A stretch of DNA of 45,510 nucleotides from a virus (taxonomy: Duplodnaviria > Heunggongvirae > Uroviricota > Caudoviricetes), in the IMG/VR virus record IMGVR_UViG_2778261177_000004, positions 1 through 45,510 of that record; one strand, 5' to 3'. Every line of letters begins with the position of its first letter. The stretch's first letter is position 1. Below the pieces are notes generated by a model. The model was not told where the DNA came from and made no database searches. It saw only the letters and a list, made by a program, of their open reading frames with translations. A program made the translations under genes and the position numbers. Positions 33,277 through 41,380 of this stretch are shown in pieces.

Positions 33277-33342
33277 GGGACTAAAGTGCTTTACATTGTC
33301 CCATATTGGGACTACTATACTTTCAGAGAGAAGGAATCTGTG

Positions 33343-33645
33343 ATGAAAATAATTTCGGTAAAAACACTAAGGGATTTCTGGGCGAAGAATCCCGATGCAG
33401 AACAGCCATTAAAGGCATGGGTTGATGAAGCAACAAAGGCTGACTGGAAAAACCCGGCTGAGATCAAAGAACAGTACCGGACAGCCAGCATCCTTAAAAA
33501 CAGGCGCGTGGTGTTTAATATTAAGGGAAATGATTACAGGTTAATTGTCGCAATTGCTTATCAGCGAGGATGGATGTTCGTTAAGTTTATTGGAACACAT
33601 AAGGAATACGATGCCATTGAAGCGGATACAATAGAACTGGAGTAA
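33343..33645 (+). CDS. higB: type II toxin HigB (RelE/ParE superfamily mRNA interferase)
   Basis: 100 aa from the ATG at 33343 with an AAGGA RBS; ...GNDYRLIVAIAYQRGWMFVKFIGTHKEYD matches the HigB/YgjN pattern; toxin precedes antitoxin as in higBA. Confidence 0.8.
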   Translation: MKIISVKTLRDFWAKNPDAEQPLKAWVDEATKADWKNPAEIKEQYRTASILKNRRVVFNIKGNDYRLIVAIAYQRGWMFVKFIGTHKEYDAIEADTIELE

Positions 33646-33648
33646 ATC

Positions 33649-34008
33649 ATGAACATTAAACCTATCCGTACAGAACAAGATTATGAGGCCGCACTGCGTG
33701 CGGTCGAACCGATGTTCGATAACGAACCGGAAATGAACACACCGGAAGGCGATTTCTTTGAAGTAATGTGCCTGCTCATCGAAGAGTACGAGAAAAAGCA
33801 TTACCCAATTGAGCCACCATCACCTATTGAAGCCATTAAGTTTCGTATGGAACAGCAAGGGCTGACAGTGAAGGATCTGGAACCGGCAATTGGTAAGTCA
33901 AACCGTGTTTACGAAGTGCTTAATGGCACGCGAAATTTGACGTTACCTATGATTCGTCGTTTACATTCCCAGTTTGGCATTCCTCTTGAAAGCCTGGTTG
34001 GTGTTTGA
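33649..34008 (+). CDS. higA: antitoxin HigA (HTH-XRE)
   Basis: 119 aa with a C-terminal HTH (GLTVKDLEPAIGKSNRVYEVLNGTRNLTLPMIRRL) directly after higB. Confidence 0.8.
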   Translation: MNIKPIRTEQDYEAALRAVEPMFDNEPEMNTPEGDFFEVMCLLIEEYEKKHYPIEPPSPIEAIKFRMEQQGLTVKDLEPAIGKSNRVYEVLNGTRNLTLPMIRRLHSQFGIPLESLVGV

Positions 34009-34069
34009 GTCTGGCGGTCTGGAAGACCGCCTTCACCAAAAATAAAGATAAGAAGGTTTGAATTTTTAT

Positions 34070-34807
34070 ATGAGCAAAGATTCATCATTAGAAAATAAAG
34101 ATGAAAATGTCACAGTCAGGAACACAATAGAAGAAGCCATAAGAGACAAGTTATTTAATAAGTTGTTTGCATATGTTGTGGTTTCTTTTTTTGTCGTTAA
34201 CTGGCAGGATATTATTATATTATTTAAATCAAAGTACGATATATATACAACATTGTCTATAGTATGGGTTGGTGAGAAATATCACTTTCCTTATGTTGGC
34301 CCCATCATTGTATCTCCGTTTGTGGCTCATTTTGTTATGCCATTTATATATGGAACCACTGCGTCAGTGGTAATGCCTTATATAACAATGTATATATCAA
34401 AAGCAACAGGCAGGAACTATGCAAGAATTAGATACATTGACTATGAGTTTGATTTAGAAGAGAGGGCAAGAATAAAAGAGTTGCAGATCAACTTGAAGCA
34501 AAAAGAGAGCAAGCTTTTAAGTCTAGAAAAGCAAACAGAAGATCAATATAAATTATTGTCTGCAATTGAAGAGAAGAAGAGAGAGACTGAGAGTGCCAGA
34601 GTGGCTCTGTATCACGGCATAAAAGTAATTGTCGATGTATATAAAGCAAAAAAGAAAAGAATTTCCACCCAAGAAGATTTTGCCGATTTATTAAAAGCAA
34701 TTGAAGAAAGCGATTTTTATAAAGACACTGGATTGTGGGGTATTAATAAACTAATAGATGACGTAGAGACAATATATGAGTCTCAATCGACATCAAAGGA
34801 CAAGTAA
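34070..34807 (+). CDS. AT-rich integral membrane protein with C-terminal coiled coil (unknown function; candidate exclusion/abortive-infection factor)
   Basis: About 245 aa from the ATG at 34070 (AGAAGG RBS); about 4 predicted TM segments then a charged coiled-coil tail; sampled GC about 30-35 percent versus about 50 percent nearby; flanked by hairpins. Confidence 0.55.
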   Translation: MSKDSSLENKDENVTVRNTIEEAIRDKLFNKLFAYVVVSFFVVNWQDIIILFKSKYDIYTTLSIVWVGEKYHFPYVGPIIVSPFVAHFVMPFIYGTTASVVMPYITMYISKATGRNYARIRYIDYEFDLEERARIKELQINLKQKESKLLSLEKQTEDQYKLLSAIEEKKRETESARVALYHGIKVIVDVYKAKKKRISTQEDFADLLKAIEESDFYKDTGLWGINKLIDDVETIYESQSTSKDK

Positions 34808-34812
34808 TATAA

Positions 34813-34832
34813 AAGGCGGGATAACCGCCTTT
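34813..34832. terminator. bidirectional terminator hairpin (aaaggcgg/ccgccttt)
   Basis: Inverted repeat between convergent genes with T/A-rich flanks. Confidence 0.5.
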
Positions 34833-34840
34833 GTTGTAAA

Positions 34841-36037
34841 TTAAGAACCTTTCTTCACATACTCCATAAACATTTTTTCAGCTTGCTCAGGTGACGTTCC
34901 TGTCATGACCAGCGCATCAATGAACGCTTGCTTCTTCAGTGCGAATTGATCGGCAAGGCGTTGCTGAAGCTCCTTGTTTTTCTGTTTCTCACGTTGCAAG
35001 GCTGCTTCTTTTGCTGCTGCCCGTTTTTTCTGTGCATCGGACAACTTTCTGGCCCTGGTCAGCTGATCACGTAGCTTGTCAATCTTGCCGTTGTCCTTTG
35101 CCAGTTTTGTGCTTAAAGCGGCCTGGCGTTTCTGATAGAGCTTCCATTCACGTTTAGCTGCCTCAACATTCGTTTTGCTGCTACGATTTCGATTGAACGC
35201 CTTCTCGTCTTCTTTTGTGAAGTGTTTTGTCGTGCGGCGGCGATCGTCACCAAAGGCAACTTGCGTTGCAGCTTTTTGCAGGGCGCGAGCAATACTCATC
35301 TGCCAACTGGCAGACTGTAGTCGTGTCATTGAGTGGATCACATGTTTACAGGCGACGCCTTGCAGCTTAGGGTTGCGAACTTTTGGATAGGCGTATTCTT
35401 TTGGCGGGGCCAGGGCAAAGTTACCCGCAGTGGCGATGTAGCGATACCAGTATTGATGGCGACCGCAGTCACAATCGAAAGACACTCGCCCGGCACACAG
35501 TGATTTTGTGACTTTCAGGGCTGATTTATCGTCTTCTGCGATGTCATCGACCATCTGATCCCATTCTTCAAAACGTACCCGGACAATGTGGTGCTGGTGA
35601 ACGGATATATCGGACGCTTCCACGCGGATATTAATCACATTGTGACGAAGAGATACGGGCGTAGCTCTTTTGATACCAGAACCGTCGTCTACGGCGTTAT
35701 TTGCTCGCTTAATATCGATAGCCTGGCTGGACGCTACCAGTTGTGCGTATGTAATGCCAGCCGTCTTGCTGTCGTATTTTTCGCGTGCTTTGCTTCGCAG
35801 CTTTTCGAAGCCTTTCAGATCGTCACGCGTAAAGAACGTGCCGCCTTTCTTTTTCCCCAGCTTAAGAATGTCTTCGGCTGATTTATTCCTAAGCCTGCCC
35901 GGCGTGAGTGTCCTGTGCGCCTGGCGGCGTTTGCGGTTTTGCTCTTTCCTGATGAGTTCAAATACGCGTGTGAAATCCTTAGAGGACAGGCCGTCAGTGA
36001 TATATCGCCCGTCCTGATTTTTCAGGAAGTCAGGCAT
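34841..36037 (-). CDS. SWIM-type zinc-finger protein with basic coiled-coil C-terminus
   Basis: 398 aa; CxC...CxH signature (FDCDCGRHQYW...GVACKHVIH); K/R/Q-rich C-terminal coiled coil. Confidence 0.5.
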   Translation of the reverse strand: MPDFLKNQDGRYITDGLSSKDFTRVFELIRKEQNRKRRQAHRTLTPGRLRNKSAEDILKLGKKKGGTFFTRDDLKGFEKLRSKAREKYDSKTAGITYAQLVASSQAIDIKRANNAVDDGSGIKRATPVSLRHNVINIRVEASDISVHQHHIVRVRFEEWDQMVDDIAEDDKSALKVTKSLCAGRVSFDCDCGRHQYWYRYIATAGNFALAPPKEYAYPKVRNPKLQGVACKHVIHSMTRLQSASWQMSIARALQKAATQVAFGDDRRRTTKHFTKEDEKAFNRNRSSKTNVEAAKREWKLYQKRQAALSTKLAKDNGKIDKLRDQLTRARKLSDAQKKRAAAKEAALQREKQKNKELQQRLADQFALKKQAFIDALVMTGTSPEQAEKMFMEYVKKGS

Positions 36038-38253: not shown

Positions 38254-38646
38254 TTGAAAAGATTTGCTATTGCTTTACTGGCGTCTTTCCCTTTGATCGC
38301 GAGCGCCGGAAATTTACAAGTTAAGTGCGGTCGGTTTGATATAAAAATCTATCCAGATGCCATATTTCTGAATGGGAATAAGGTTGATAACGCACACCGA
38401 AAAACTGAATCTGACGTAATGAGCTATGTGTTCCAGTAGTATGCGGAGATGGGGGGAACTTACACGCTGTACTCGCTGGATGTTCCTTCTCGCGGTGATA
38501 TGACATTATCCCATCAATGGCAGAACGCCGATGGCGAAGCTCTGCGCGAGGTTAAAACAGAAAAATGTGGCACTTTCCATTCTTTTAAAGGGAAAGCGCC
38601 AAATGTTAAATCTGTGCTTGAAAAACAGCGCGCAGGTGATTTTTAA
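38254..38646 (+). pseudogene. secreted small protein gene interrupted by an in-frame amber (TAG at 38437-38439)
   Basis: ORFs 38254..38439 and 38449..38646 are in the same frame; GGAGG RBS and TTG start; signal peptide MKRFAIALLASFPLIASA; both halves contain a KCG.F motif. Confidence 0.35.
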
Positions 38647-38734
38647 ACTGCGTTAGAACTTTGAACATGGCGACAACACATCTTGGTGGCTGCGTTGTCG
38701 CTGTATGCTTTTATAATATAAAGCATTAAAGTTT

Positions 38735-39352
38735 TCATTTTTGTCGGATCTTTTCCAGCATATTTAATTCATTATCACTTTCTGCTGCTGAGACGGTTGG
38801 CCTCACATTTCCGAAATATTTCCTGTGAGACTCATGACTTATGTATTCACCGACAGTTTCATTCTTGAATATACGAATTTGACATATGCGAGATCCAACA
38901 ATAAGTTCCACAGGGCTATTCCCATGATTAAATAACTCTAAAGATATACAGCCTCTGTACCCTGGTTGTATCATGGTATTTAATGAAAGACCAAGCCTTG
39001 TATAGCTGCTTCTGGACAATACATCAGCGTAGCAATCTGGTGGCAAACAAACATATTCTAATGTTGTTGCCAGTACCACTTGATTCGGGTAAACAATGAA
39101 TCTATCCCCAAGATCTCTCCTTGTTTCCTGGAAAAATGTTCTGATTGGTTGATGAGTATCATTGTTTTTAGAGGGAATTAACTCTATTGACGGCTTCCTT
39201 GTCATAATAGACACTAAAAAATCGTAACCAAGTCTAAGGTCTATGGTGAAGTTCCCAATTTGGTTTTTATTTAGAAGAGGTTCAATGAACAACGATTCAG
39301 GTTCTTCTGATTCATAATATTGCAGTAATTCAGCTTTGCTTAGGAGATTCAT
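38735..39352 (-). CDS. dCTP deaminase (Dcd/dUTPase-fold) family protein
   Basis: Collinear similarity to E. coli Dcd (recalled from memory): IDLRLGYDF; SRSSYTRLGL versus GRSSLARLGL; IQPGYRGCISLELFNHGNSPVELIVGSRICQIRIF versus [34 protein letters not shown]. ATGA start/stop overlap with the upstream gene. AT-rich. Confidence 0.7.
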   Translation of the reverse strand: MNLLSKAELLQYYESEEPESLFIEPLLNKNQIGNFTIDLRLGYDFLVSIMTRKPSIELIPSKNNDTHQPIRTFFQETRRDLGDRFIVYPNQVVLATTLEYVCLPPDCYADVLSRSSYTRLGLSLNTMIQPGYRGCISLELFNHGNSPVELIVGSRICQIRIFKNETVGEYISHESHRKYFGNVRPTVSAAESDNELNMLEKIRQK

Positions 39353-40434
39353 TGTGCATTCCATTTTTCAAGAATCATTACGTTTCGAATCGATTTTTCA
39401 ACCAAATCATTTATAGTTTTTTCTATGGCTTCTTTTGACAACCCAGACCATATACCCGTAGGTTTTTCCCATTCAGAGCATAAGTACTGCCAGCTGCTGT
39501 TAATAAAAGCATGCATTTCATTGTGGTCGCGAATAACAAAAGGACGCACATTATCAAAAGCTGATTTCACATCAAGCAAAGGTGTCGGCAATGTCAAACA
39601 AGGAGAAATAATTTGCCCACCCTTATGTAAGGCTGATATCACAGCATTGAACATGCCAATAACTGGATTTTCCACTTTGTTCAAAAAGTCGCTTACAACT
39701 TTAACCCTGTTTTCTGTTGATGGGTGAGTTTCGCTTGCAGGATGAGAACCAGCTAATTTGTATAAGAAATCCACACCGCTTTCCCCTACAAATTGCGCAC
39801 TGAAAAGATCTGCAAAATACTCCCTACAGTGATTCAGCCAAATAACATCAGGTAATTTAGACCACTCAATACCTTTATGTGGCACAGGAAGCGTACCTTG
39901 ATTAATAGAACGAAAGTTTAGATTGGCAAGCTCAGAAATACCTTTGCTAATATCAACAAAGTGGCCCAACTCGTGATATAAAGGTGTTGAGCACAATGGT
40001 CGTCTTCGGTACATTTCAGGTAATGAAATCTGAATTAATTCGATATCGCATTTAACATGTAAAATTTCATTAAGTAAAGTGTAGAAATTCTTACTTACAG
40101 ACTTAAAATAAAACCCATTCATATCTGGCGATAGAGCCGTTGTAATAAGTGTTTTTTCACTTATCCATTTTTTACAGGCATCATTTAAGCAATAAACAAT
40201 CTCGTAGGGAATTTTCTTTGTAGTACTGCCAGTGAAAAAATTAACTGCATCGGTGATAAAAAAAGTACAATCAGCAATTATTTCATCGGCAACCTTCTCA
40301 TGGTTTTCATATAGCTTATCTGCTGCTTCTTGTAGAACAGCGAGATATTCATGCATGTCTTTAGAAAAATAGGGAGATTCTGAAATCTCCCTTAGCTTAT
40401 TTCGAACTAATGTAAGTTGTGTAAATGCAAGCAT
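39349..40434 (-). CDS. HExxH zinc metallopeptidase-like protein (ImmA/IrrE-like signature)
   Basis: 361 aa with LYHELGHFVD followed about 45 aa later by EYFADLFSAQF, resembling the ImmA/IrrE HExxH...E..AN.FA pattern; TAATG overlap with the upstream gene; AT-rich. Confidence 0.5.
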   Translation of the reverse strand: MLAFTQLTLVRNKLREISESPYFSKDMHEYLAVLQEAADKLYENHEKVADEIIADCTFFITDAVNFFTGSTTKKIPYEIVYCLNDACKKWISEKTLITTALSPDMNGFYFKSVSKNFYTLLNEILHVKCDIELIQISLPEMYRRRPLCSTPLYHELGHFVDISKGISELANLNFRSINQGTLPVPHKGIEWSKLPDVIWLNHCREYFADLFSAQFVGESGVDFLYKLAGSHPASETHPSTENRVKVVSDFLNKVENPVIGMFNAVISALHKGGQIISPCLTLPTPLLDVKSAFDNVRPFVIRDHNEMHAFINSSWQYLCSEWEKPTGIWSGLSKEAIEKTINDLVEKSIRNVMILEKWNAQ

Positions 40435-40739
40435 TAAATGTACTCTAATACATTCCGGGCCATTACGGGTTCTAACATATCTTCGCTAGTTACTTTGGTT
40501 AGCACCTTGGCTAGCGCCTTAGTATGGCGTATTTCTACCGCGAGCGAGATGGACTCTCTGTGAGAGGGAATCTGTAGTTGATCACCTTTATCTACACTTA
40601 AGTTTGAGGCTTCTCTGATCACCTCATAAACCCGTAACTTTAACTGCTGTGACACTTCTTGTTGAGATGCTATAAGCTGAAGTACAGTCTTGATCAACTT
40701 CAAAGAATCAGAAGCTTGCTGAGGAACCGCATAGAGCAT
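40434..40739 (-). CDS. small helical protein, first gene of the three-gene operon
   Basis: 101-aa ORF translationally coupled to the metallopeptidase-like gene. Confidence 0.45.
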   Translation of the reverse strand: MLYAVPQQASDSLKLIKTVLQLIASQQEVSQQLKLRVYEVIREASNLSVDKGDQLQIPSHRESISLAVEIRHTKALAKVLTKVTSEDMLEPVMARNVLEYI

Positions 40740-40877
40740 AACCCCTCCTTTCCCTTATCTATAACCGCTTTCTTTTTTTCTGTGTATGTTAAAAGTAGAA
40801 GCGGTTTTTACCTTTTGTAATATATATAGTGTCTAAAACTAACTTTGGCACTATATATGGCATGATATCTATGTTTT

Positions 40878-40920
40878 AAAGACACAAAAGCTCTGTTTTA
40901 ACAGAGCTTTTGTGTCTTTA
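40878..40920. repeat. perfect 43-bp palindrome (19-bp arms, aaagacacaaaagctctgtt / aacagagcttttgtgtcttta) in a highly structured intergenic region
   Basis: Perfect inverted repeat; additional inverted repeats nearby at about 40763-40807, 40822-40858 and 40949-40997. Confidence 0.6.
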
Positions 40921-41065
40921 ACTTGATCATTTTCTCGCTGAAGTGTATGTCAGGCTTAGCTCATAATCAAGTTGCTTCCAAGCTAAAAATGAGCTGGCTC
41001 CCTGAAACACTAAGAGCGGGGTGTTTCATTTATTAGCGTTGGGCCTGACGGTGTGTAGGTGAGTT

Positions 41066-41380
41066 TTAGCTCATTACTCGATAACGACGGGGAACGGAAT
41101 TATCCATCAGGTCACGAATTACTCCCGCTTCACGCAGTTCCTCTGTCTCCCAGTATCTGTTTGTCACCAGGTCAAGGCTGGCAATGACTTTATGCCGGTC
41201 ATTCGGCATTGCTTCTTTTTCAGCCATTATCATCAGTGAGAACTCTTCATCCAGTAGAATTTGATACCAGACTTTTGACAGTTCCAACTCTCTAATGAGG
41301 GTGAAGCGCCGCTCAATTGTGGCGGAAGAATAAGTGAAATCAATTTTTTTCGTGGCATACATTTTGCTGTGTCCGGTCAC
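41066..41380 (-). CDS. hypothetical protein downstream of the antirepressor
   Basis: 104-aa ORF. Confidence 0.45.
   Translation of the reverse strand: MTGHSKMYATKKIDFTYSSATIERRFTLIRELELSKVWYQILLDEEFSLMIMAEKEAMPNDRHKVIASLDLVTNRYWETEELREAGVIRDLMDNSVPRRYRVMS

Follow-up and report, generated by a model that had tools for sequence, protein, structure and literature searches.

What does a small AT-rich operon, conserved across bacterial phyla, do on a mobile element of Escherichia coli? The operon, here called A-B-C, lies on the minus strand of the Caudoviricetes record IMGVR_UViG_2778261177_000004 (positions 1 to 45,510; hereafter the window, at its full length of 45,510 nucleotides). It encodes a small protein (A), a putative zinc metallopeptidase (B) and a homolog of the dCTP deaminase Dcd (C). 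Our best reading, to which we give an even chance, is that A-B-C serves defence or abortive infection as a module of three components, that dCTP is destroyed in it by a Dcd-fold enzyme coupled to a peptidase, and that the module travels as cargo of a P1-like phage-plasmid.

Gene organization

Genes A (40434..40739, 101 amino acids), B (39349..40434, 361 amino acids) and C (38735..39352, 205 amino acids) follow one another on the minus strand. A and B overlap in TAATG and B and C in ATGA, and a strong Shine-Dalgarno sequence, AAGGAGG, is present at 40750-40744, 4 nt before the ATG of A. An alternative in-frame ATG of gene C at 39364 would give a product of 209 amino acids. A first-pass annotation of this DNA had listed three tightly coupled minus-strand open reading frames (ORFs) of 101, 361 and about 205 amino acids, and both the ORFs and their overlaps were verified. 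It had also put their GC content at 25-35% against about 50%. The direction of this difference was correct, but the figures were overstated: the inserted cassette that holds the operon has a GC content of 37.6% (200-bp windows span 30.5% to 44.5%), compared with 44.8% and 49.4% in the 2 kb on either side and 46.9% over the whole window. Deep homologs of each ORF and a gene order kept across phyla mark the three ORFs as more than chance.

Protein C, a dCTP deaminase homolog

Protein C consists of a single Dcd domain of 205 amino acids, in which Pfam finds DCD/dUTPase-fold families only (DCD, 1.3e-30; PF22769, 107 bits against a cutoff of 27). It scored 113.3 bits against TIGR02274, the NCBIfam equivalog of dCTP deaminase (cutoff 92.8). 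C was collinear with E. coli Dcd (1XS1, E 7.9e-15), including the RSS..RLG segment and the catalytic Glu in SLELFN, and Ser111, Arg115 and Glu138 of E. coli Dcd correspond to S115, R119 and E139 of C. Among 60 non-identical homologs from related loci, these residues were conserved in 97, 98 and 100%, respectively, and the C-terminal arm (Y170 and R177-K178-Y179) was conserved along with the catalytic residues at 95-100%. Conservation of the catalytic residues and the arm at this level therefore fits a working enzyme. The last gene had previously been described as collinear with Dcd and probably active, and this description held: the catalytic Ser, Arg and Glu are kept, and the score is above the TIGR02274 cutoff. 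An inactive Dcd fold, which would have emerged on proper alignment, was not what the 1XS1 alignment and the 60 homologs revealed, since the catalytic residues were present in both. We assign C as a Dcd/dUTPase-fold dCTP deaminase homolog whose catalytic residues are intact.

The Asp of the IDPGW motif (D128 of E. coli Dcd) is replaced by Gln129 in C, and Gln is found in 57 of the 60 family members (95%). The D128 position presumably aligns to Asp90 of E. coli dUTPase, and we treat this alignment as a lead only. The replacement of a dUTPase-type catalytic Asp by Gln argues against onward hydrolysis of dUTP by C. Thus, C would have the deaminase function alone and release dUTP without hydrolysing it. 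In one related locus (L073:10088-10699), we noted a full-length Dcd-like sequence that is 74% identical over 205 residues to the C protein of another locus (L018). The public gene call at these positions has a product of only 69 amino acids, which probably reflects an internal stop or a miscalled gene.

C may simply be an extra dCTP deaminase that supplies dUMP and dTTP for phage-plasmid replication, as the first-pass annotation had proposed as its main alternative. RefSeq annotates C as 'dcd', its score exceeds an equivalog cutoff, and a gene for the large subunit of ribonucleotide reductase (ATP-cone plus Ribonuc_red_lgN/lgC, about 795 amino acids) lies immediately upstream of the trio in three loci. 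In these loci, found in Adhaeribacter, Hymenobacter and a metagenome-assembled genome (MAG) labelled Janthinobacterium (L056:6950-9340, L066:7108-9486 and L071:7083-9461), the reductase gene is on the same strand at a distance of 110-133 nt. This adjacency could mean that relatives share an insertion site, or that the trio is linked to nucleotide metabolism. However, the obligate linkage and fusion with a peptidase and a small protein makes no metabolic sense, and the trio shows a patchy horizontal distribution and is absent from most sister plasmids. Moreover, the host has its own Dcd, the family-specific Q129 is unlike housekeeping Dcd, and a tblastn search with B yielded 0 matches in 50,697 deposited phage records. 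We consider ordinary nucleotide metabolism a very unlikely explanation of the operon.

Protein B, a putative M48-like peptidase, and protein A

Homologs of B numbered 372 in a large protein collection, nearly all of them unannotated, and 543 clusters at 50% identity were found among 1.84 billion representatives. In an alignment of 60 sequences, the invariant columns were H154-E-x-x-H158, D161, E205-x-x-A-D209, H237-P238 and R243. The motifs that had been read from the sequence, namely, HELGH (residues 154-158) and EYFADLF (205-211) in B and RSS..RLG and SLELFN in C, were all found, and the two in B fall in invariant family columns. The combination of HExxH, ExxAD and (T)HPxxxxR is what we take to be the signature of the M48 peptidases (HtpX/Ste24/BepA). 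The Pfam M48 profile (PF01435) scored 17.4 bits on B of the window, with a gathering score of 20.3. M48 matches were obtained for 13 of 60 B relatives at E<0.01, and two of these, P0100 (24.6 bits) and P0077 (21.5 bits), passed the gathering score with matches that cover profile positions 69-183. Matches to ATLF, presumably the anthrax lethal factor family and thus another family of HExxH zinc peptidases, were obtained for 11 of the 60.

B had originally been called an ImmA/IrrE-like HExxH peptidase. The motifs support an HExxH zinc peptidase, but one that is M48-like and not of the ImmA/IrrE (M78) type. The Peptidase_M78 profile (PF06114) matched neither B nor its 60 homologs, whereas true M78 neighbours in other loci, which served as a positive control, scored 1e-8 to 1e-18. 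We rejected the ImmA/IrrE assignment on these grounds, together with the M48-like motifs and the presence of true M78/CapP proteins as separate neighbours. The label suits the neighbours of the trio elsewhere, not B. The AlphaFold2 model of B had a pLDDT (predicted local distance difference test) of 93.6, and the predicted fold had no significant match in PDB or BFVD. We regard B as a putative M48-like (gluzincin) HExxH zinc metallopeptidase with extra helical domains and no close solved relative of its predicted fold.

Protein A is a soluble small protein and a candidate partner, inhibitor or autoregulator. It matched phrog_27938 over its full length, and no significant relative was found in Pfam, PADLOC or PDB. 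The family is weakly conserved, with an N-terminal MLxA and a few Leu/Ala positions in common. The Bacteroidota version is distantly homologous to A (hhalign probability 86.5%, E 4.5e-6). Neither Pfam nor PDB revealed a recognisable DNA-binding domain in A, and its C-termini had no conserved C-terminal Gly, which we sought as a sign of conjugation of the ubiquitin-like protein (Ubl) type. In a Hasllibacter MAG contig (L042:2948-5559), three A-like paralogs of 148-158 amino acids are encoded upstream of B, and the B gene is split into two ORFs.

Conservation of the trio and natural fusions

The first-pass annotation had proposed to look for the trio in other genomes, and it was found across phyla, including beside defence genes. 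We scanned one genome per species and obtained further loci from look-ups of individual homologs. The scan returned 61 loci in Gamma-, Beta- and Alphaproteobacteria, Desulfobacterota, Leptospirales and many Bacteroidota, and the look-ups added loci in Proteus, Aeromonas, Dickeya and others. Of the 62 loci with downstream sequence, 60 had C directly downstream of B or in fusion with it, and the median B/C overlap was 17 nt (calculated from longest-ORF starts). An A-like small ORF of approximately 100 amino acids was located upstream of B in 56 of 59 loci. Furthermore, 23 distinct natural B-C fusion proteins of 547-640 amino acids were identified, and no fusion partner other than Dcd was found among the top 150 B representatives. 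The structure model of a B-C fusion had a pTM (predicted template modelling score) of 0.86, which suggests a defined docking of the B and C domains. Collectively, the linkage, the fusions and the fusion model argue that A, B and C act as one unit and that B and C are in physical contact.

Only two loci, L024 (B at L024:9989-11077) and L067 (B at L067:9824-10939), had no Dcd-like sequence anywhere. Both retain A or an A-like gene, and B of L067 directly abuts an operon of the Bub type described below. These two loci, in which B may act alone, bear on the possibility that the roles are reversed. B would then be the effector and cleave an essential host or phage protein, and C would be a sensor or switch that reads dCTP, dUTP or phage-modified dCTP. 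The cleavage of EF-Tu by the Lit protease offers an analogy for such an effector. B is the larger, multi-domain protein with invariant catalytic motifs, and Dcd-fold proteins bind nucleotides and are allosterically regulated. However, the 97-100% conservation of Ser, Arg and Glu in C is expected of an enzyme and not of a pure sensor, and the fusions of the top 150 B representatives involve Dcd only. We consider this reversal of roles unlikely.

Genomic neighbourhoods

A possible defence role had been suggested for the operon, and its neighbourhoods in other bacteria point in the same direction. The trio is accompanied by QatABCD and an integrase in Proteus, and by a type I restriction-modification system with Abi_C in a betaproteobacterium. 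In Dickeya, it is located in an integrase/AlpA island with an HTH-M78 protein, and its neighbours in Dechloromonas are transposon genes and an HTH+M78 pair. More than 10 other genomes have CapH/CapP or HTH+M78 pairs on the flanks of the trio, and CapH/CapP occur in at least 10-11 loci. A census covered the 128 ORFs closest to the trio across 63 loci and counted 10 CapP (best E 7e-73), 7 E1-E2/ThiF and 5 JAB proteins and 5 integrases.

A full Bub (6E/DUF6527) operon was present within approximately 3.5 kb of the trio in 18 of 64 loci (L013, L018, L025-L030, L032, L037, L041, L043, L046, L053, L054, L058, L067 and L069; at about 6-15 kb in each locus). These operons encode Multi_ubiq, Prok-E2_E, a JAB-ThiF E1 and DUF6527; their orientations vary, and CapH/CapP usually lie between them and the trio. 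No homologs of Bub or CapH/CapP were found in the window at E<=1e-3.

The trio may accordingly be an accessory or output arm of Bub ubiquitin-like pathways, with the cassette in the window as a minimal version, similar to the relationship between type I and type II CBASS (anti-phage signalling systems based on cyclic oligonucleotides). The proximity to Bub operons and the intervening CapH/CapP genes are consistent with such a link, and the papers that describe Bub (bioRxiv 10.1101/2024.11.21.623953) assign it no target, effector or phenotype. On the other hand, approximately 70% of the loci, including the window, are without Bub genes, and the trio and Bub could be mere neighbours in defence islands under common CapH/CapP control. 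The Bub papers and their supplements list no such genes and make no mention of a deaminase or of a linkage to the trio. As a general account of the trio, an arm of Bub pathways appears improbable to us. A narrower proposal, in which the trio supplies the output arm that a subset of Bub systems is missing, (de)conjugation of the Ubl switches the peptidase/deaminase complex, and the cassette in the window is a minimal Bub-independent form, is one we put forward tentatively and regard as rather doubtful. If it is correct, it would link bacterial ubiquitin-like signalling to the destruction of nucleotide pools. The linkage of the trio with Bub and CapH/CapP provides a lead on what Bub pathways do and act on.

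A mobile cassette

The window region shares 99% identity with pEC213_2, an E. coli plasmid of 92.7 kb whose annotation includes Icd-like, Rha/Ant, Ref nuclease, maturation control protein, baseplate and tail genes. Judging from this annotation, the host element is probably a P1-like phage-plasmid. In blastn comparisons with a sister plasmid without the trio (L002), homology stopped at 38648 and restarted at 41079, with approximately 31 bp in between in L002. Because homology breaks at these positions, we place the whole cassette at 38649..41078, which makes it an insert of 2,430 bp when compared with P1-like plasmids that lack the trio. The spacing of the flanks was either 31-34 bp or approximately 2,417-2,420 bp in all records in which both flanks could be paired; therefore, the cassette is a simple presence/absence polymorphism. 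We also considered a multi-cargo hotspot at the insertion site and rejected it, as the site was empty or held the trio in all pairable records.

An imperfect direct repeat of 12 bp, AGGTGA[T/G]TTTTA, lies at the two junctions of the cassette. Junction alignment placed its left copy, AGGTGATTTTTA, at 38634..38645 and its right copy, AGGTGAGTTTTA, at 41057..41068, both on the plus strand, and the empty site of L002 has a single diverged copy, AGGTGAGCTTTA. The cassette was carried by 8 of approximately 74 related E. coli plasmids and also by several Salmonella plasmids, and megablast and tblastn searches of deposited phage genomes returned no copy of it. A discrete cassette of 2,430 bp and low GC content that is either present on or absent from a mobile element agrees with the earlier description of the operon as horizontally acquired cargo. 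P1-like phage-plasmids would thus spread candidate immune cassettes among enterobacteria.

Other genes of the window were also noted. An ORF of 104 amino acids on the minus strand (41066-41380) is located between the Rha/Ant gene and the cassette, with its last codons inside the cassette junction. RefSeq labels it 'transcriptional regulator', yet it had no Pfam match. We rejected this backbone ORF as a regulator of the cassette, as trio-less plasmids have the same ORF. On the plus strand, 33286-34008 encodes HigB (PF09907, 4.9e-34) and an HTH_3 antitoxin, which form a toxin-antitoxin module of the HigB/HigA type. A 249-amino-acid ORF without a Pfam match (34058-34807, plus strand) lies in the kilobase with the lowest GC content (34001-35000, 0.356) and may be further acquired cargo.

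Promoter region and regulation

Two dyad elements of the cassette are located upstream of gene A. A repeat search identified a perfect palindrome with 22-nt arms and a 2-nt gap at 40876..40921, which forms a 21-bp stem in the predicted fold. A second inverted repeat (ATATATAGTG...CACTATATAT) occupies 40822..40858, and its promoter-proximal arm holds the -10-like TATAGT. A consensus scan placed a sigma-70 promoter-like site for the A-B-C operon, TTAAAA-18-TATAGT, at 40850..40879 on the minus strand. The number of promoter-like matches in this region was not above chance, and this site is a candidate only; its position between the hairpin and the ribosome-binding site is suggestive. The palindrome, upstream of the candidate promoter, is a putative terminator/insulator hairpin or operator, and the inverted repeat at 40822-40858 is a candidate operator. 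The cassettes of Proteus (L003) and Dickeya (L072) retain both elements, and the substitutions in them are symmetric and compensatory. The conservation of these promoter dyads suggests tight regulation, as is usual for toxic modules. Downstream of C, a hairpin at 38670..38701 (minus strand, 11-bp stem, z = -3.3) is a candidate terminator shared with a convergent backbone gene, and a terminator-like site was found at 38684-38703 on the plus strand.

This arrangement raises the possibility of an addiction or general stress module of the toxin-antitoxin kind, which has no role directed specifically at phage and stabilises the phage-plasmid or genomic island with A as the antitoxin or autorepressor and C, or B and C together, as the toxin. 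A small upstream gene followed by enzyme genes, translational coupling and conserved palindromic elements that overlap the promoter all conform to this pattern. The same plasmid already bears HigB/HigA, and CapH/CapP respond to DNA damage besides phage. In contrast, no DNA-binding domain was detected in A, most members of the family lie on chromosomes in defence-type neighbourhoods, and the presence of the cassette on only about 8 of 74 related plasmids indicates that it is not needed for maintenance. We doubt that A-B-C is primarily an addiction module.

Proposed function

We return to the reading of A-B-C as a defence module that destroys dCTP. C would be the effector: it would convert dCTP to dUTP, with a collapse of the dCTP pool and possibly a flood of dUTP. 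B would be a cytosolic, M48-like zinc peptidase in complex with C, whose activity it would gate. A would be a small third subunit, possibly an inhibitor or a peptidase substrate, and may also be an autoregulator that binds the promoter dyad elements. We infer the enzymatic activity, the formation of a complex, the trigger, the control of the deaminase by the peptidase and the protection against phage.

Several points weigh against this reading. A, B and C had no significant match in PADLOC-DB v2.0.0, which covers known and candidate defence proteins; thus, the defence role rests on guilt by association. The enrichment of defence genes in the neighbourhoods is qualitative, as the census had no matched random-gene control, and some trio loci have ordinary metabolic neighbours. 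The predicted fold of B matches no solved peptidase; therefore, the peptidase assignment rests on motifs and weak profile matches. The absence of B from the deposited phage records also counts here. In E. coli, Dut would quickly remove dUTP, and the host Dcd runs the same reaction harmlessly under dTTP feedback; toxicity would therefore require deregulated activity of C. Which of B and C controls the other, and what A does, is guesswork.

If the trio is defensive, nucleotide-depletion immunity would have arisen at least twice from unrelated folds, namely, the CDA type and the dUTPase type, and the physical coupling of a deaminase to a zinc peptidase would represent a new regulatory logic. The cassette of 2.4 kb is native to E. 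coli and has its own candidate promoter, and is thus directly testable.

Comparison with known systems

The trio had been presented as undescribed. We found no published description of it in the literature, and no PADLOC v2.0.0 model or paper that we found covers A-B-C. Its relationships to described proteins are as follows. C resembles housekeeping Dcd (1XS1, TIGR02274) in its fold, in the equivalents of Ser111, Arg115 and Glu138 and in its C-terminal arm. In contrast, 95% of the C family has Gln where housekeeping Dcd has Asp128. The gene of C shares an operon with a peptidase gene or is fused to it, is horizontally mobile and is an extra copy beside the host dcd.

B shares HExxH, the downstream ExxAD glutamate helix and HPxxxxR with the M48 peptidases (HtpX, Ste24, BepA and Oma1; PF01435). 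Similar to CapH/CapP and the ImmA/IrrE (M78) pairs, it is an HExxH peptidase tied to defence operons; however, it has no M78 match and no HTH partner, and its downstream motifs are different. The trio and the Bub (6E/DUF6527) operons are neighbours in 18 of 64 loci, have CapH/CapP regulators in common and are both candidate immune pathways. However, the trio has no Ubl, E1, E2 or DUF6527 component and stands alone in most loci, including the window.

The deamination of dCTP has a precedent as a defence against phage (bioRxiv 10.1101/2021.04.26.441389). The defensive dCTP deaminase described by Tal et al. is a single 576-amino-acid protein with an N-terminal kinase domain and a zinc-dependent cytosine-deaminase domain (bioRxiv 10.1101/2021.04.26.441389). 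The first-pass annotation had stated that the known defensive dCTP deaminases are larger kinase fusions, which was confirmed; they also have a different fold, that of the zinc-dependent cytosine deaminases. C and the deaminases of the Tal et al./AvcD type have in common a proposed deamination of dCTP that starves phage replication, and an occurrence in defence islands and on mobile elements. In contrast, C has neither a CDA-fold nor a kinase-like domain and is accompanied by an M48-like peptidase and a small protein. The two folds are not homologous, and any shared function would thus be convergent. The trio may act in a manner similar to known nucleotide-depletion defence, but falls outside the AvcD-type family.

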